From: Sporopachydermia quercuum
Taxonomy: Eukaryota
Assembly (NCBI GenBank): GCA_001599295.1
Contig: BCGN01000003.1
Location: 372,001 to 436,000 of the forward strand
DNA length: 64,000 bases
Direction of reading: 5' to 3'
Under the pieces are notes generated by a model. That model searched no databases. It worked only from the letters and a program-made list of their open reading frames with translations, and had not been told where the DNA came from. Made by a program: the position numbers and the translations under genes. Numbering within the stretch: the first letter of the stretch is position 1; each line of letters opens with the position of its first letter. Shown here piece by piece: positions 43,701 through 54,287 of this stretch.

Positions 43701-44756
43701 GCATCACTACGCCTATTAACTGTATGCGTATCTTTATCCAATAAAGGGATATCAAATGCCATTCCCAACTCATCGAACAGATCAACCTGTTCATCGGGAG
43801 CAAGCTGGGAATACAGGTCATAGTCAAGGGATCTATCTGAAACATGAAAATGGTGGTAATTTTGTTGATAATGTTGGTGCTAAGAGCTCCTTTGCCGTTG
43901 ATATTTATACCGCTGGGTTTGTTGATATTCGGCTCGGAAATCCTTATTTTGTCGAGACCAATTACCAGAAGAATCAAAATCTCGGCGCTCATTCTGACTG
44001 GAATGAGCTCCATCCCATTTTTTGTTGCGATAATCTCTGGATCTATTCCAGGTCCTATTCGGATTCCAGTTCCGATACCAGTGGGAACTACGTCGATCGT
44101 AGTTATTCCGATTCGGACCTTCGGCATATCGTTCTTTCAAAGATTTCGAACGATCCCAAATATTGCTTACACCCGTTAACTTTTCATCATCGTCCAATTT
44201 TTCATAATGCAACTCCGGTCGGACGTAGTAGTTTGTCGAGTACATTGAAGAGCTCCCCCCAAATATCGGCTTTGGTTTTCTTTGNCTTTGGTTTTGCAGA
44301 AATGGGTTCCGCTTCGTCTTCCGAGCCAGACGGAAGCAATACATGAAATTCATCATCATCGTCATCAATTCCGTCATCTAATCGAAATGGAACGCCTTCT
44401 GAAGTACCCGAAGAATTACGTCTTCCTTCTATTGTGCCATTTTTCTTACTATTGTTTTGACTACTATTATTGTTAGGATTCTCAGTCAAATCAATGTATG
44501 TTCCCCTGAGATTTTCTATAGGATTACTTCCAGATGCCGATGTCAAAATATTAGAGGATTCTTCATAAGAAGGTCTAGGTTTTGAATATAAAGCCTCATC
44601 TTCATCATCAGAATCTAACCAACCAGCAGGGATGCCATTGACACTTGCAATTCTTCGTGGTGGAGTAGTTGATTGATTAGGTTTATTGGTATCAANGGAA
44701 GAGCCCGAAAGGTTTGAATTTGTTTGTTCAAAGACTTTAGAGCGCTGTGACGCCAT
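40794..44756 (-). pseudogene. U2 snRNP-associated SURP protein (U2SURP/SR140-like; RRM-SURP-CID) with several reading-frame breaks
   Basis: RRM (LRIVGLPPKFTEANLEQMF...AFVEF), SURP (IHLTIENVLAYGPIFEAILM...LHVYYRWKLF) and CID-like (VMGFAISKC...RLYVLN) segments. Broken by a frameshift near 44200-44280, in-frame TAG 43880-43882, a frameshift near 42145-42190 and in-frame TAA 41115-41117. Confidence 0.7.
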
Positions 44757-45518
44757 TTGGTTTAGCACTATATCATCGTCTCACCATTCGAACACGATTG
44801 AAAGAGAAAGCGTAAGTGATGCGGTTAGATGTTGAACGAAGACTTGAGAGAAAATAGNATACAGCAGTTGCTATGATAAAATCAAATGCACGCGCCGCTA
44901 AAAATACATATAATATAACAGATTAACTACCAAAAACAACCGTAGTTCTCTCAATTGAGCGTTAATTCAGTGTTTCGGTTCTTTCAAAGACCAAGTGATT
45001 ATTGAGTAAAGCACCCCCAATGACGCATGCAATTCTCTGGGCTTGAATTTAGAATTGTCNATCGTCCTGTACTAAGTCGTGTAATTCTCAATAAACATAG
45101 ACTAGTCAGTTAAAAAAAAAGAAGCAGGTTTTATGCTGATCAGCTGTCTATACTTACAATTTTAAGGGTCCATAATAATGAACAGAATANAAGCTTCAGC
45201 AGATGAGAACTACTTATGTTATGGTGATAAAATAACAAACGATTATGTGATCATGTATTATCAGTGTGGCTTTTAAGTTCAATGCACATGATTTCCATAG
45301 TTGGAAGTTAATGTGGCNTTGACCACCACAGAAAGACTGAAGACCACACTTACAGAGAGTAAGTAATATGGGGAATGTGGTTACAAATAGAAATTGAGAT
45401 ATGAAAATAAGCAAAAAGAAAAGAAGCGAAGATATGATAGCAAAGTATACTCATCATAAATATTATTATTGACTATAAGCTTGAATATGATTTTGAGAGC
45501 AATTTTATTACACATTTC

Positions 45519-46222
45519 TTAATTTCGGACAATATTCTGAGCTAAGTTGTCGCCTCCTAATGTTGAAGATTGTTTAAAATCTTCATGAGTGAGAGCACCT
45601 AGTGCATAACACACAGAGATCATTGTAAATAGAATGGCCACAGCTAATAAAGATGTAACTTGGACACTCATTGAAACGTATTGAATAACAGCATTTAGCA
45701 TGTAAAAGCCTGAACGTAACCAATGATGTTGGAAACCTCTAATGAAGTTTTTAAAATCCTCGGTAAAAGGACAGATTTTCAGTAAGAAAGGTACTTCCAC
45801 GAACAACACAACTAGTCCTTGCACACTTGGAGATAACGTTAGTAAANATAAAGCTAAAAAACCAAGAATCATCAACAACAAACTTAGCCCAACTTACATG
45901 CAGATAATAGCAAAGACAATCACTACTGAGAAATGGAAAATATTAGCAATACCTAAGGCAATGCACAGAATAACAGAAACCAATCCAAGCCTATTCAATC
46001 GTTAGCAATGCAACAGTCAACGTAGTTCTCTAAACACTAAATACCAGAACAACATACCATTGCCCATAAAGGCTGGGAAAGTTAGTAACTAAATCTCAAT
46101 TGTTTCTGTTTTAGCGCACAGATCAAATCACATTCTCACCCTTTTGATCCTTGCTCTTTCTTTTCAACATACCTGTAATTCCTATCTCCCAGTTCTTCTT
46201 TAAATGATTCCAAAAATCTCAT
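45519..46222 (-). CDS. TVP18: Golgi membrane protein Tvp18; exons 46222-46173, 46072-46058, 45990-45898, 45825-45519
   Basis: Spliced product RNYSLYGQWLG...CIALGIANIF...QGLVVLFVEVPFLLKICP. Three introns with canonical donors and branch points. Confidence 0.9.
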
Positions 46223-46843
46223 GGCGAAAATCTATTGATCGATCCTAGAAGTTTCAGATTCAAAACTGAAAAAGTTAATCAAAGGTTTGAAACATGCCTT
46301 TTAATATTCCATTATTTTCTTTTATATAANGATAGCGCTCCTTCATCAATAACAACCTTCCTCCTTTGTTATTTATTGATCCTGTACAGCAAGATGACCG
46401 GATCGAANGTCACGCAGGGAGACTTGAAGNGCCCCAACTGAAGTGTCCAAGATGCAAGAATAAATGAATGGAGAGATACNACGAGTACTTTACATTGAAC
46501 AATATTCTCTATTTTTTAATTTANTACGATGAATTACAGATTATATTCTACAGTATTGAGAATAGATTGATAAGAAACAAATATCAAACGATACCAGAGA
46601 ATAATACACAATATTCTTCTATAATCGTCAGATTTCCTATATAAATGATTACATAATCTCATAGGATTCAACTGACATTTTTCTCCGCCAAAAATTCATT
46701 TTTGCTCTAAATAGTGNTTCATCAGACATAAAAATGTGCTTGAAAAGGGTTACTCTAGTCGAATTACTTGGGGTAAGTGAAAGGCATAAAAGTTTCAATG
46801 CATTTCGAAAACTCATATTTTGAGATTAGCGTGTTGCGCCAAA

Positions 46844-47488
46844 ATGGCTGATCTGACGGCACAAGAAATAGACTTGATTCGATCTCAGCACTACTGGAAT
46901 GAACGATATGCAAAAGCTGAGTCAAATGAAACATTTGACTGGCTCTTCACATGGGAGAAGTTGAGTCCCTGGATACAGAAGTATATCCCTGATAANAGTA
47001 AGACGATTTTGATGTTGGGTTGTGGTAATAGTACGCTGAGTGCGGATATGTATGATAATGGATATCAGAACATAGTAAACGTTGACTTCTCAGCTGTATG
47101 TATTGAAGAGATGGCTAAGATGAACTCTGAAAGAACGAAAATGAAATGGGTTGTAGCCGATGTAATGGATATGAAATTTTTGGAAGATGAAAGTATTGAT
47201 NTCGCGCTTGATAAAGCTACTCTTGATGCTTTTCTTAGCTATCGTGGCAGCGTATGGGAACTACCCCCAGAGATCAAAGAAGATTGTGACAAATATATGA
47301 ACGAAGTACACAGAATACTGAAGAAGGATCATCCTTTCTTATGTATATCGTTTAGACAGCCTCATTTTCTTAAACCTGTGTTGGCGAGGCCTGATTACTG
47401 GTCATTTGATTACGGTCCTGTTGATGAAGAAAATGCCAATAAAGGTTTCGTAACATACTATGGGTTTAGGATGATAAAATACAGTTGA
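46844..47488 (+). CDS. Class I SAM-dependent methyltransferase, EEF1AKMT4/METTL13-N-like
   Basis: Motifs YWNERY, ETFDW, ILMLGCGNS, NVDFS, DKATLD and ISFRQPHF. Confidence 0.85.
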   Translation: MADLTAQEIDLIRSQHYWNERYAKAESNETFDWLFTWEKLSPWIQKYIPDXSKTILMLGCGNSTLSADMYDNGYQNIVNVDFSAVCIEEMAKMNSERTKMKWVVADVMDMKFLEDESIDXALDKATLDAFLSYRGSVWELPPEIKEDCDKYMNEVHRILKKDHPFLCISFRQPHFLKPVLARPDYWSFDYGPVDEENANKGFVTYYGFRMIKYS

Positions 47489-48694
47489 AAATTTATGAGA
47501 ATAGATAGGCTCTACTGTCTGAACCAATANTAGACGCAAAATTCATAATAATTATCAAGTATTTCCGGGAACTAATTTCGAGAACCAGTAATTAGTTATA
47601 ATTAGTTCTAATAAATCACCGATCGAGCTTTCATTCATCAAGCGAACGAACATCGAGTCTTCTTCTGATGTGAGAGAACCAGTACCTGCATAAAGATGCT
47701 TCTTTATACTTATTAGCTGCATGAACTTGACTTCAACTGCGCTCAACAGGTATTCGAAGAGTCCTAGCTGATATTATCATCCACAACTCTATCATCAAAC
47801 CCAATGTTATACTATTTTGGCGTGTTCTCGGCCATCTCATGAGTGAGTCCTATCATATTGGCTTCATGTAATGAAGTAATAAAATATTAAAACAACAAAT
47901 TGATCGTCTTACCGTCTTATAGCCCCTATTTTCTAACGAATCTTTTACATGTCGTATACATGTCGTATACTTTCCTTTAATTTAAGCCGAGACTAAAATT
48001 TTGCAAGAGTTCTGCATCTCATTTCCTTTTCATCACGACTGGTTTCCAGAAACCAGATCCATTGACATTCAGCGCATATCAATCCTGTACAGATGAACAA
48101 ATCACCCAACTATTCAAATCAGTCATTTATTTCACTTCGATGATCGCATTATTTACTTTTATTTTCTCCTCGGAGCAATAAGCAACTTATTAGTTGCAGT
48201 CTCAATTACATGTACTGAATTTCTGGTCCATATTGATTGAATCAATTCCTCGGTAAGTGTAGTACTGAGAATGCTCTTGAAATGACAACGGATTAGTGTC
48301 AAATTACCTAGTAAATGTTAGATTACAACTTTTTTTGGCGATCTCACCAGTTGCTACATCTTTTTGCGTACGTAAACTAGTGTTATGGTGTACATTAAAA
48401 TCTTATGCATAACTCATGTACAATCAGTGCAACATTTAAACTTTAAATAACAAAGATTCACTTAATGCACTAATATGCATAAATTAAAGACCTTAATAAT
48501 GCTACATACTCATGCATATAATTGAATTCTTATGTTTANTCTTTTTTTTTAGCCGATATATAAGTTTCTTTTACCTTGTGTATCCGAACAAGCCTCAAAG
48601 TTTTATATGAATTAAGTAGATAATCAGAATANTACGAAACTATCGTAATATATATATAAAACGTAATACAATACAACAAGTCATTTTTAATAGC

Positions 48695-49567
48695 ATGCAT
48701 AGATGTTGAAAACCGATTAGGGCTTAACTAATAAGAAAGAGCTTCAACTAAAAGTTCAATCAAGTTAAGATTAAATCAAAGCTGTTTAAATCAGCTCTAA
48801 GTGTACCTTGTTATTTTACAAAACTCTAGAATAACTCTTCATCTAAATAAGGATAGATGAATCAGATGAAACTCTTTCAGTTTGTTCAATTCTTCGATAT
48901 ACCAGGGCATTCTCACCTCTGGTATTTCACAGTTCTACATATAAATTTTTTGTGGCATTATTCTATCTTTTATTTTTGGAATTCTATTTAAACAAGGGGT
49001 TTCTCTTTTTTTTTTTGATTATTCCTTTTATTCTGCTTATTGTTATTGATACAAATGATGAATACATATATCATCGAATACACTATCAGAGGAACGCACT
49101 AGTAAGTGGTTCACTGTACTGATCTACTAGAACAGGTATTCACTACCGCTTGGTTAAGGGAAACGCACACAAGTGGTTCACTTAACTGTTCAGGAAAGCT
49201 TTGTATTGCGATCATTAGTGTTCAATATCTCGTGCACGCCCTCAATAATTCTGCAGGTATTTATAATTTATGCTATAGAATTCCAAAAATAAAAGATAGA
49301 ATAATGCCACAAAAAATTTATATGTAGAACTGTGAAATACCAGAGGTGAGAATGCCCTGGTATATCGAAGAATTGAACAAACTGAAAGAGTTTCATCTGA
49401 TTCATCTATCCTTATTTAGATGAAGAGTTATTCTAGAGTTTTGTAAAATAACAAGGTACACTTAGAGCTGATTTAAACAGCTTTGATTTAATCTTAACTT
49501 GATTGAACTTTTAGTTGAAGCTCTTTCTTATTAGTTAAGCCCTAATCGGTTTTCAACATCTATGCAT
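48695..49567. repeat. Perfect 293-bp inverted repeat (arms 48695-48987 and 49275-49567), 287-bp spacer
   Basis: The arms read as exact reverse complements from ATGCATAGATGTTG to GGAATTCTAT on manual comparison. Confidence 0.95.
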
Positions 49568-50077
49568 CCTATCAGAATCCGTAGAAATCATCTTTTGTTT
49601 CCCTTGAAACAAATAAATGTGTACAGGGAAAGTAATTCCATAACATGTTGACTTATAATGCTAAATAANGGTGTTTCCGGTCAATTACAGTGTACGTGGC
49701 GTACATATATACCAAGTCTTTTATTGTTTATACATCGCCAGGCAGGACAGCCTTGTGAGCAAAGAATAGGTACTTGATGTGCCCTTTCTTCACACAAACT
49801 TTAAACCAATAGTCTTTTGACATAGTATGAAGTGTATAGTTAGTTTACCCCAGAATCACCTTTTGGCTTTCGTTTCTTTGTCTTGTAGCGTAAATCCGAA
49901 ATATCTCTCGGTTTTAGGGGCACGTGATTAATACCTTTCTCCATAATTTCACTGAAATGTGTAGGTCCACTGAATATTTTCTCAATTACTTATTTTTGTT
50001 ATATTACCCAAAGCCTTTAATTTTAGGAGTTGTGAGACTGATTGAAAACGGTGAAGACTAAGATTAAAAAAATAATC

Positions 50078-50149
50078 ATAACAGGCTAATTTAGCAAAAG
50101 AGTTGAAATCGTAAGCTAAGGTTGGCACCTCGATGTCGACTCAACCTAT
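50078..50149 (+). pseudogene. rnl: NUMT: mitochondrial LSU rRNA (rnl) domain V fragment A
   Basis: ATAACAGGCT...GGCACCTCGATGTCGACTCA is the conserved peptidyl-transferase region of bacterial-type LSU rRNA. Confidence 0.88.
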
Positions 50150-50272
50150 AAAACACTAANTAATATATTGATAATAGAGATTTATAAATAATTAAATTAT
50201 TTAATTCTTTTATTATTATGTACCTCTTCATGATTTTCATTTCTAAATGTTTTATTGATCATAATTAATTTT

Positions 50273-50382
50273 TTCTCAGCCTACAAATAATATTAAATAA
50301 TTATCTCCAGTAACTAATATAATCATAAAGAATGTAAGTATAGCAAAAAATGCAAAGAATCTTTGTTGATGAGGATCTGATC
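50273..50382 (-). pseudogene. nad5: NUMT: mitochondrial nad5 fragment
   Basis: Reads [34 protein letters not shown](TGA=W)E, a conserved ND5 segment in the mitochondrial code. Confidence 0.9.
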
Positions 50383-50508
50383 TATTAATATTAAATGATC
50401 TGGATGTAATGTTAATAATTGTAATAAATTATAAAATTATTAGAATACTGTTAATTATAATACAAGCTAATAATAATCTTATCGTAAAATAAAATAATTA
50501 ACCCCCAA

Positions 50509-50585
50509 GTTAAACTAACTCAATTGGTAGAGTGTTCGTTCGTTCTGTAGTCGAAATGTTTTAGGTTCGAGCCCCAAATTTAACA
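50509..50585 (+). pseudogene. NUMT: degenerate mitochondrial tRNA, probably Thr(UGU)
   Basis: Acceptor GTTAAAc/aTTTAAC, D-arm ACTCAATTGGTAGAGT, T-loop GGTTCGAGCC and TGT at 50546-50548. An extra GTTC disrupts the anticodon stem. Confidence 0.7.
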
Positions 50586-50589
50586 ATAA

Positions 50590-50648
50590 CCTTATAGAGT
50601 CAATAAGAAGGGTTCGGCTGTTCGCCGATTAAAAGATACTGGAGTTGG
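50590..50648 (+). pseudogene. rnl: NUMT: rnl domain V fragment B
   Basis: AAGAAGGGTTCGGCTGTTCGCCGATTAAAAGATACTGGAGTTGG is the A-loop (H92) region that normally follows fragment A directly. Confidence 0.85.
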
Positions 50649-52877
50649 ACCTTCCATACTTTGTGTAAATCAAGCATGTAATCCCAAGGGGTTGGGTCAC
50701 GATTATGGTCTCGTGACTCTTTTTTGGTGAACATTTGGTCCTTTTTGGACTATCTCACGGTGACTGAATGTTGGCCCAACATTCTGTTTCCTCTATGAAC
50801 AGGTTTATCTTTTATTGAGTTGGCTGATTCCTGTTTATGGCATACTAGAAGCATGTTTCTATCACTTTTTCTATGAATTCTGTAGATAAATCCATGATCT
50901 AGGGTATTGGTTCGCTTGTGCTTCTCATCAATTGAGTTGAAAAACATAATATAATCTGTATTCAATTTTAATTTATGTAAGTAGCTATTCAGAAACCATC
51001 TAGATACATTGTTTATGATCAGTTTATCGACCGGTTTTGTTTGCTTACTATAAACTAAAAAATGTATTACTTTTCTTGAAATGAGTGATTAAGTTTAGTA
51101 TTGAATGTAGGATTATGCATCTATTTTCTTTTTGGGAATTATTTATGCACAATTATGCACCGTTATATTTAAGTTTTACTATACAAAAAATGTAAATTAA
51201 GGTTTTACATACATATTAATGCATATTATGTTTATGTACAAGTTATCGGAATGTTGAATTCATCTACGCAAAAAAAAAAGTAGCACTGGTGAGATCGCCC
51301 TTTCTATTGATAAAATAATATCTTTCGTGTTAACTTAATGTATTCTCTCGTAAATGGTATAATAATCAACCTATTGGGTTATGAACCTGTATGCGGTCTG
51401 TATTACTAGTAAGAACGTCCATTGACAACAAGCACTTCACCAATTTCCTAGCTATACATTTTCTCAATTTCAAATTAGAATTTGAGATATTTCCTCATGA
51501 ATTTCAACACCGACCCGATCCATCGAATGACCAGTTCCAACTCAGTTCGTTCGACACTCCCTCCTGGCTGCATTATTTCGCCTACAATGGTTCCCTTAAT
51601 AGAAATCTTACCGACGTATTTTATCCAAAAAGATGCATATAAATGCATGAAAAGTGCAGATATTTCTCCGCATTGCAGTATTCCACAGCACAGCACGTCA
51701 TCTTAAATCGGTTTTATCCGTCACTTGACCTTTGATAACAATTAACATTTGCTCAATACGCGGAACTAGCAACTTTCAGTAACGAATAGCTAAATATGCA
51801 CCGAATAGTTCTAATTATAATCCGGAACTTCGGCCGGAATTCTAAAAGTGTATTCCATGCGATACTCATCGTTGGAACACCCTAGTTTGTCTATAGTACA
51901 CTCTTTTGTCAGCTACAGCTACAATCCCTTTTTGCTTGATTTGCCCAAATAAGCACCAGCCGTACTAGCGAAATGGTGTAATGCTTGCTTATTTTTGTTT
52001 CATCTCAACTCTTTCAACATCCATTTTTCCATCAATGATCATTGATTTCTAGCTATTAAATAAAGACGATCAACTAAATGATACTACCATTATTCCACTC
52101 ATTAGAAATTCTCATTAATGAATATATTCTTTCTAATAATATATGCCTCCTCACTTCTCCTACTCTTTCTCGCTCGATCAACATAGTACCCCTGAGGATT
52201 TCATCCCTTCTGCATGATCATGTATCCCCTCTTTACATGTAATATTTAACTTTGAGATTTAAACTTTAAAAATCTCACATGTACAAACAACTCAAAAGCC
52301 ACCCAAATGGTTTATTTACTACACAAAAGCTGGAGAAAAAAAGCTGGATAATTGAATGAGAACAGCTATCATCAAGAGTGATTTTATTGTCCTCTTTCTT
52401 TATTTACGGTGGTGATTTAAGAAGGATAACTTCTGCTTAGTTGTGTTATGCTTGTTCTATGTATAGGCAGTGAATGACTGATTTGGTTTTAGGTGCTTTG
52501 TTACTGACAACTCCTTGAGATTGGAAATTCAAAGAAAAAGAGAAGTAAATAGTATCATAAGTTTAGTACTCTCTCAAGTTGGGCTTGAAATTTATTGTTT
52601 GGCCTTAACGAGATCCGTTGATTTAGCAGAAACGTCCTGTACTATATGTATTCTATACCAAGGTGGTGGTGATATCTAGGAGATTAGTCGGTTTAGAAGC
52701 TTTTGAAGATTTCTGATAGAAAATTCCGCTACCTTTTTCTACGTTACAGAGAATACGGAGAACTGACAGTAGAAGAAAAGAACGAACAAAAGACAAAAAC
52801 AGAAACAGAAAGGACAACAGGACCTGATTTTAACAACAGAAATCACACCGAAGGCGAATGAGTACAGATAGGTCACA

Positions 52878-54287
52878 ATGGATCCTACCCTAGCAAAAGA
52901 TTATGTCCCTCCGAATGAACGAGAAAGTTCCAGTCATTATGATCTACCAACAACACCTTCATACTTAATCCCAAATATAGATCCCATTCTACCATATGTG
53001 CTGGAGGACCTGAATTCAAACTCAGGCATTGATGCTCCTATACAATCGGATGAATACCGAAATAAACAATATCACCACCATCACCACCACCACCATCATC
53101 ATCATCTCAATAATAGCATCAGTCATAATAAGCAACAAAATGAAGATAAGAAAGTCCATTACAGTTCAATTCCTAGAATTCCTTCAGCCCTTACACCAGC
53201 TTCATCACCATCTAGCTCATCCTCATCTTTGGTAAGCGTCGGGAAAGAAGCTACTGTTGGAGAAATTACTGGTGGAATTTCTGACATTGGGATAGAACCC
53301 AATGCTGAAATCAGCAAGAGTGATTCAAGCACATCAGTAGTTTCTGGTGCAACGAAAAGCTCGCAAATTACCAATACAAATGTTCTGAATGAGGTGTATC
53401 AAGAAACAGTGGTGCAGTCGGACCATAGAATAATCAATGCTGCAGATTTAGAAGAAGTGCCTAACGGAGTCACAAGACAAGCTAAAACAATAGATGGATA
53501 CCAATTTCCCACTCATAGATTATCAACAGTAATGCAAGACTCTTCCAAGCTGCCGTTAGTTATTGTGGCTTGCGGATCTTTCTCTCCTATTACATATTTG
53601 CATTTACGAATGTTTGAGATGGCAATGGATTCTATTCGTGAACAAACCAGATTTGAGGTGATTGGTGGATACTACTCTCCTGTATCTGATCATTATAAGA
53701 AACCAGGACTTGCTCCTGCACATCATCGAGTACGAATGTGTGAACTAGCATGCGAAAGAACTAGTTCGTGGCTTATGGTTGATGCTTGGGAAAGTCTCCA
53801 GACCCAATATATGCGAACAGCACTAGTATTGGATCATTTCAACGAAGAGATCAACATCAAGAGACAAGGTGTTAAGATGTTTGATTCGAAAACAGGGAAG
53901 GTTGTGCAGCGAGGGGTGAAAATAATGCTTCTTGCCGGTGGAGATTTGATTGAGAGTATGGGAGAACCAAATGTGTGGTTGGATGAAGATTTACATCATA
54001 TTCTTGGTAGATATGGTTGTTTGATTGTAGAAAGGACAGGGTCAGATGTTCGAAACTTCTTACTGTCACATGATATAATGTATGAGCATAGAAGAAACGT
54101 TTTGGTTATCAAACAATTGATTTATAATGACATTTCTTCTACAAAAGTAAGGCTGTTTATAAGAAGAGAAATGTCTGTGCAGTATCTTTTACCTAACAGT
54201 GTGATACGGTATATTCAGGAACATAGTTTATATGTTGGTGAAAGTGAGCCCGTTAAACAAGTTCTTGAGGATAAGAAGAAAAACTAA
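52878..54287 (+). CDS. NMA1: Nicotinamide/nicotinate mononucleotide adenylyltransferase
   Basis: LVIVACGSFSPITYLHLRMFE and DISSTKVR motifs; poly-His tract in the N-terminal region. Confidence 0.95.
   Translation: MDPTLAKDYVPPNERESSSHYDLPTTPSYLIPNIDPILPYVLEDLNSNSGIDAPIQSDEYRNKQYHHHHHHHHHHHLNNSISHNKQQNEDKKVHYSSIPRIPSALTPASSPSSSSSSLVSVGKEATVGEITGGISDIGIEPNAEISKSDSSTSVVSGATKSSQITNTNVLNEVYQETVVQSDHRIINAADLEEVPNGVTRQAKTIDGYQFPTHRLSTVMQDSSKLPLVIVACGSFSPITYLHLRMFEMAMDSIREQTRFEVIGGYYSPVSDHYKKPGLAPAHHRVRMCELACERTSSWLMVDAWESLQTQYMRTALVLDHFNEEINIKRQGVKMFDSKTGKVVQRGVKIMLLAGGDLIESMGEPNVWLDEDLHHILGRYGCLIVERTGSDVRNFLLSHDIMYEHRRNVLVIKQLIYNDISSTKVRLFIRREMSVQYLLPNSVIRYIQEHSLYVGESEPVKQVLEDKKKN

Follow-up and report, generated by a model that had tools for sequence, protein, structure and literature searches.

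The closest described counterparts of the locus analysed here are the four-point template-switch mutations, among which the order 3-1-4-2 is the rarest class, with 1% of events, and which are of the size of mutation clusters (Loytynoja and Goldman 2017, PMC5453318). Template switching between the arms of inverted repeats (IRs) has also been described in S. cerevisiae (Abraham and Hazkani-Covo 2021, PMC8604942), in which polymerase switching homogenises short, pre-existing repeats in coding DNA, resulting in perfect arms and in an inverted spacer. Small inverted triplications and ODIRA (PMC13334657; PMC10766186) have in common with these a strand switch at the replication fork, which takes place at short interrupted palindromes, spans hundreds of bases and leaves short homologies at the junctions; the product is a DUP/INV/DUP arrangement (148/160/148 bp on average, with a 30-bp spacer). 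Additionally, yeasts are known to carry inverted repeats at the centromeres of Komagataella phaffii, Candida tropicalis and Barnettozyma (PMC5010909; PMC12711049), where a near-perfect repeat and a unique-looking core lie in a long intergenic region, and at the palindromic siRNA loci of Naumovozyma castellii (bioRxiv 2019.12.12.873604), where the potential for a long RNA hairpin is accompanied by a Dicer-like RNase III.

In this work we describe a perfect 293-bp inverted repeat from Sporopachydermia quercuum which is, with good probability, the young and probably neutral product of a type 3-1-4-2 template switch in relic DNA. This locus differs from each of the systems above. Compared with the events of PMC5453318, the copied stretch (about 580 nt, of which one 293-nt arm remains as a duplicate) is, judging from the framing of that paper, unusually long for a four-point event, and the ancestor is inferred here from a paralogue and not from an orthologue. 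Unlike the S. cerevisiae repeats of PMC8604942, the long arm is new and lies in a non-coding relic; unlike the small inverted triplications (PMC13334657; PMC10766186), one segment is doubled, while the middle part of 287 bp occurs once and is inverted. The arms of the inverted-repeat centromeres measure 0.5–4.3 kb, against 0.29 kb here, where a dispersed relic supplies both the arm and the core (PMC5010909; PMC12711049), and, in contrast to N. castellii (bioRxiv 2019.12.12.873604), the Argonaute gene is broken.

The window (the whole 64-kb stretch of DNA that was analysed) is part of the 2.05-Mb contig C3 of a fungal genome of 16.4 Mb, assembled in 15 contigs; the ORFs, for the most part uninterrupted, suggest a budding yeast. 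The two arms of the repeat, at 48695–48987 and 49275–49567, are reverse complements of each other at all 293 positions, are separated by a spacer of 287 nt and can be extended neither inward nor outward, which bears out the dimensions given in the first-pass annotation. When the window was compared with itself by BLAST, this was the sole repeat returned, direct or inverted (E 1e-151), and no perfect long inverted repeat was present in 20 spaced 10-kb samples of C3. A long inverted match was found in one of these samples (C3:620.7–623.0 kb) and was dropped as an older case, since it corresponds to a convergent pair of paralogous genes with 74% DNA identity; these paralogues (L050 707–1450 and 2222–3010) encode secreted, probably GPI-anchored proteins.

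The repeat exists in the DNA of two samples. Of five runs, three DNA runs contain this stretch and were compared over 47900–49310, two of which (X1 and X3) come from one sample, and are possibly the source of the assembly itself, and the third (X2) from another sample and study. In all three runs the arm forms its own 293-nt contig, without variant letters and with a depth roughly double that of the flank (arm/flank depths of 195.5/96.3, 71.1/33.8 and 43.8/23.8), the spacer forms a contig of 347–351 nt that extends 30 nt into an arm at each end, and the left-flank and right-flank contigs each join the arm at its outer end. Taken together, these contigs support two arms in 3/3 runs and exclude a fold-back artefact of the assembly, the single-arm error against which the repeat was to be checked; being assembled from short reads, they could hide a single difference between the arms, and they are blind to the orientation of the spacer. 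Over 825 nt of flank, X2 departs from the window at two sites and one base; its spacer differs by 4 nt and its arm not at all. The depth of the X2 spacer (22.9, against 33.8) was not taken as a finding.

The surroundings of the repeat are free of genes, as the first reading of the sequence had it, with no ATG-initiated open reading frame of at least 100 aa over 47489–52877. This gap of 5,386 nt, the longest among the eight gaps above 1.5 kb in the 64-kb window, is flanked on the left by a methyltransferase gene (46844–47488, forward strand; Pfam Methyltransf_31, E 9e-11) and on the right by an NMN adenylyltransferase gene (52878–54287, forward strand). Outside the repeat, the gap contains a mitochondrial insertion (50140–50585), with a nad5 fragment (50270–50452, reverse strand; E 2.5e-14) and a tRNA-like piece (50509–50585, forward strand; Rfam tRNA, 36.3 bits); the part at 50430–50566 also matches C11:237655–237786, with 84% identity. 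In the Rfam search over 47400–52900 this tRNA-like piece alone was above threshold. The stretch 49568–50142 gave no Pfam match in six frames, and 50590–52870 has no further copy in the genome. Single N positions are dense in 44001–48694 (3.8 per kb, compared with 1.1 per kb in the window as a whole), where they are probably heterozygous sites, and are absent from the repeat.

What the first-pass annotation had overlooked is that arm and spacer both derive from a single older repeat, and that the origin of the inverted arrangement can be read from the junctions. Searching the arm against its own genome, as had been proposed, identified one other full-length relative among the best candidates scored, at C9:938399–938649 (72% BLAST identity, plus/plus). 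This C9 sister carries three segments in the order A-B-C, with one copy each and all in the same orientation, whereas the order in the window is A-C'-B'-C. Segment A (48343–48685, forward strand) retains its original orientation, aligning plus/plus to positions 782–1122 of the C9 locus L003 with a score of 189 (shuffle maximum of 57) and with 85 differences at 321 aligned sites; the right arm, C (49275–49567, forward strand), is likewise in its original orientation. The left arm, C' (48695–48987, reverse strand), is the new inverted copy, being the exact complement of 49275–49567 and collinear with the spacer on the minus strand of C9. The spacer, B' (48988–49274, reverse strand; conserved core at about 49097–49266), is a single copy of B, with an orientation opposite to that of A and of the right arm. 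The reverse complement of 48706–49266, comprising left arm and spacer, aligns as one block to L003 1198–1751 (score of 421, shuffle maximum of 57). The homology with the sister extends from the left flank across the left arm into the spacer, so that nothing foreign has been inserted.

On sequence grounds, A-B-C is a decayed, low-copy and non-coding dispersed repeat. Since our genome searches scored the best candidates only, the copy counts of its pieces are lower bounds: smaller pieces were found on C2, namely B with a little of C, and close to either end of C4, and B occurs on at least three of the 15 contigs, two of the three copies found lying within 16 kb of a contig end. The core of B is also present at C2:15951–16112 (79% identity), and B is the best-kept segment, with a difference of 16–17% in all three copy pairs, against 20–27% for C and A. 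A coding origin was rejected on several null results. Neither Pfam (12 of 12 frame readings without a match) nor Rfam recognises a family in A-B-C, and none of the three segments has a codon signature (in their longest blocks, the mismatches at the three codon positions number 9/4/9, 3/3/4 and 10/8/7). One frame of B has 10 synonymous versus 13 replacement codons, and the protein search that followed this lead, with one of the six frames of the C9 copy, returned no match among 1.84 billion proteins. When A-B-C was compared with the gag and pol genes of the intact Ty3/gypsy element on C4, the frameshift-tolerant scores were 24–40, with 9/9 not exceeding their own shuffle maximum, while the C9 integrase relic, used as control, scored 404.

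This integrase relic adjoins the sister copy: on C9, segment C abuts a Ty3/gypsy relic made up of a broken integrase, a polypurine tract and an LTR of about 490 bp (L017 4685–6230, within 4 kb of the contig end). The arm was considered as part of a Ty3 pol gene, for which we found no support; it simply abuts the relic. Our guess is that A-B-C is the non-coding inner part of a retrotransposon derivative. The C9 LTR has two solo relatives (L040 4257–4744, 84%, and L018 2145–2618, 76%), and the search for close relatives of the C9 integrase gave one distant match among 143 candidates. The Ty3/gypsy element of C4 (L015 1847–7661, C4:242–248 kb) has gag and pol frames that are both open, with 379 and 1254 aa, and an assembly gap at its 5' LTR.

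Other local structures were observed in these relics. Close to a contig end, among accumulated fragments of repeats, C2 contains an older, non-coding inverted pair (272 bp, 85% identity; L018 5088–5353 and 6486–6756, C2:15087–16755), with a 1.13-kb spacer that includes the C2 copy of B and with arms from a different decayed repeat, which also occurs near both C4 ends. A perfect, spacerless palindrome of 56 nt is also located on C2 (L018 2833–2888). Segment C includes a small imperfect hairpin (48811–48836 in the window, L003 1640–1665), which is perfect in the C2 copy (L009 1470–1496; 11-bp arms and a 4-nt loop) and is there possibly the result of a second, short template switch. Within B (49090–49191 in the window), a tandem motif of 21–35 nt, with a spacing of 67 nt, is retained in the C9 copy.

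The two junctions allow the rearrangement to be described in terms of four points. Point 1, the 3' end at the first switch, lies at 48685–48696 (forward strand), a 12-base stretch of which nine bases match the reverse complement of 49566–49577 and which contains a 7-mer (48690–48696). The landing site of this switch (point 2) is at 49568–49577 (forward strand) and is an imperfect complement of the left flank. At the return switch (points 3 to 4) there is a second inverted repeat, of 7 bp, given that 49270–49276 (reverse strand) is the exact reverse complement of 48690–48696. An inverted pair as good as this 7-bp one occurred in 4 of 1000 random position pairs with equal slack (±4 nt), and past the mismatch that ends the arms the outer flanks pair at seven of nine sites (p of about 0.002 versus random positions), with the qualification that these two signals have four bases in common and were chosen after inspection of the junctions. 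A word similar to the 7-mer is found between A and B on C9, and the repeat has no target-site duplication of 3–10 nt.

In the mechanism that we propose, the ancestral locus would have had the order A-x-B-C-D, with the 7-mer as x. The growing strand would have halted just past x and jumped to the other strand, where imperfect pairing at 9 of 12 bases, by the distal end of C, would have let it prime anew. About 580 nt (C', B' and x') would then have been copied backwards, until a microhomology of 2 nt brought the strand back to its original template, where C begins, and synthesis resumed. The expected product, A-x-C'-B'-x'-C-D, would have both a long perfect and a 7-bp inverted repeat, as well as an inverted spacer. 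Judged against the C9 sister, the middle fragment is indeed the reverse complement of nearby sequence and the spacer is inverted, and there are two inverted repeats, with a copied fragment that spans points 1 and 4, which are the features of the order 3-1-4-2. We infer a single replication event, rather than break repair or an eroded inverted triplication, and a repeat that is probably without function. Some observations count against this reading. The joint of the un-inverted allele is listed in none of the three runs, and as this allele is not seen, the ancestor has to be reconstructed from the C9 paralogue, which is 16–27% diverged and has about 75 nt extra between A and B. The copied fragment also far exceeds in length the short events of PMC5453318, in which the order 3-1-4-2 was the rarest. 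Moreover, a neutral accident leaves unexplained that the repeat lies in the longest gap, that the core of B is the best-kept segment and that the C2 copy of B is inside an inverted pair.

Regarding the age of the event, the arms show no difference at 293 sites (95% upper bound of 1.0%), while 49 of the 247 aligned sites of the right arm (20%, JC distance of 0.23) differ from the C9 sister. From these two values, the event would be at most about 1/20 as old as the split between C and its C9 counterpart, unless the arms were homogenised. The template switch thus appears to be young, or its arms to have been homogenised since, in agreement with the recent origin or homogenisation that had been suggested for perfect arms in degenerate surroundings.

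Other routes could lead to a similar arrangement, namely foldback-primed break repair, an origin-dependent inverted triplication that was later eroded, or gene conversion of an older inverted copy, and we regard these as unlikely. Inverted duplications in yeast do also arise by foldback priming and by ODIRA with secondary erosion (PMC10766186), with both of which short microhomologies are compatible too, and the older inverted pair on C2 (85%) is of similar size. Nevertheless, small inverted triplications and ODIRA with erosion either leave three copies or need extra steps (PMC13334657; PMC10766186), whereas B is single-copy, not triple, and one switch-and-return explains both novel junctions without further loss. 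As for gene conversion, homogenisation is unnecessary, since 0/293 allows up to 1% of divergence.

A regional centromere, in which the 5.4-kb interval would contain a repeat that is, or becomes, its inverted repeat, with B as the Cse4-bound core, is in our view improbable. In its favour are the length of the gap, which no other in the window exceeds, the good preservation of B relative to A and C, and the inverted pair that encloses the C2 copy of B, although this pair lies among repeat fragments close to a contig end. The genes nearby would fit as well, given that the S. cerevisiae NMA2 and NEM1 genes lie near CEN7 and CEN8, and that their relatives here are 3 and 11 kb from the repeat. The arm identity of 100% (293/293) is comparable to that of inverted-repeat centromeres (99–100%). 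In Barnettozyma, centromeric inverted repeats appear to come and go in place, and their arms, which reach 4.3 kb, can be as short as 0.5–0.8 kb (PMC12711049). Even so, arms of 293 bp around a core of 287 bp compare poorly with the 2 kb and 1 kb of K. phaffii (PMC5010909) and fall below the whole 0.5–4.3 kb range of the centromeres in PMC5010909 and PMC12711049. The composition is also ordinary, with a GC content of 0.330 for the interval (0.299–0.357 for the non-coding DNA of 20 spaced 10-kb C3 samples) and a GC3 of 0.325 for the flanking genes (0.264–0.436 in the same number of C3 samples). Two of the 20 C3 samples likewise have gaps of about 5 kb, and B is dispersed over at least 3 of 15 contigs, twice within 16 kb of a contig end. 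The proposal of a centromere core, made in the first-pass annotation, finds little support in the sequence, with GC and GC3 values that are mid-range for the contig and arms shorter than in the centromeres compared. There is likewise little probability that the interval is an epigenetic centromere which has just been given a small inverted repeat, around a conserved core of about 170 bp, by one template switch; if it were a centromere, the inverted pair on C2 would represent an earlier round, and the core of B a site that provokes fork switches.

Another proposal was that the locus is a source of siRNAs, transcribed into a 293-bp hairpin and diced into silencing siRNAs, as happens at the palindromic loci of N. 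castellii, which account for 74% of its siRNA reads (bioRxiv 2019.12.12.873604); we consider this very improbable here. A transcript is predicted to form a single long stem (-562 kcal/mol, z of -48), but this is trivial for any perfect repeat. As to the RNAi genes, a candidate Dicer is present and the Argonaute found is broken. An intact RNase III of 623 aa, with an N-terminal domain (RNase_3_N), an RNase III domain and two dsRBDs, is encoded on C2 (L036 802–2670) and is a putative Dicer; a second RNase III gene, likewise nuclear (C6, L037 1195–2358, reverse strand), ends after the first dsRBD. In contrast, profile and protein searches found one and the same Argonaute, a pseudogene (L035 1399–3876, corresponding to C4:1039028–1041505, reverse strand) which is near full-length and has no frameshift over 826 codons, but which in the assembly sequence contains four in-frame stops of two kinds (2 TGA and 2 TAG), one of them inside Piwi. 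RNAi seems to have been recently lost, and, as far as the gene content indicates, the hairpin could be cut but would probably not be used for silencing as in N. castellii; furthermore, its only possible targets would be relics that are 16–27% diverged.

Finally, we give hardly any credence to a programmed switch that inverts the spacer, or to a foldback/MITE-type element whose terminal repeats would be the 293-bp arms. The perfect arms would permit inversion of the spacer by recombination, as at the K. phaffii centromeres (PMC5010909), so that passive flipping is possible, but the spacer is without a gene and belongs to the same relic as the arms, the homology with the sister crosses the left boundary, no target-site duplication exists, and the sole other full-length relative of the arm among the best candidates scored (72%) is not in an inverted pair. 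An inserted element with terminal repeats was rejected on the lack of a 3–10 nt duplication and of a second copy as an inverted pair. The search for a Flp-type recombinase found none, and its control likewise matched nowhere.

The repeat is probably a new and unusually long example of a known and neutral type of mutation. As such, it would provide a natural case of a rare template-switch class, of a length between that of the short events described in primates and in genes of yeast and that of large inverted copy-number variants. Were the interval a centromere, its importance would be much greater: it would be an inverted-repeat centromere born in place, through a datable mutation and with an un-rearranged paralogue as control. 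On the reading that we favour, a template switch in relic DNA, the locus indicates that a long perfect inverted repeat in the intergenic DNA of a yeast need not be the mark of a centromere, of a switch or of a locus for RNAi.
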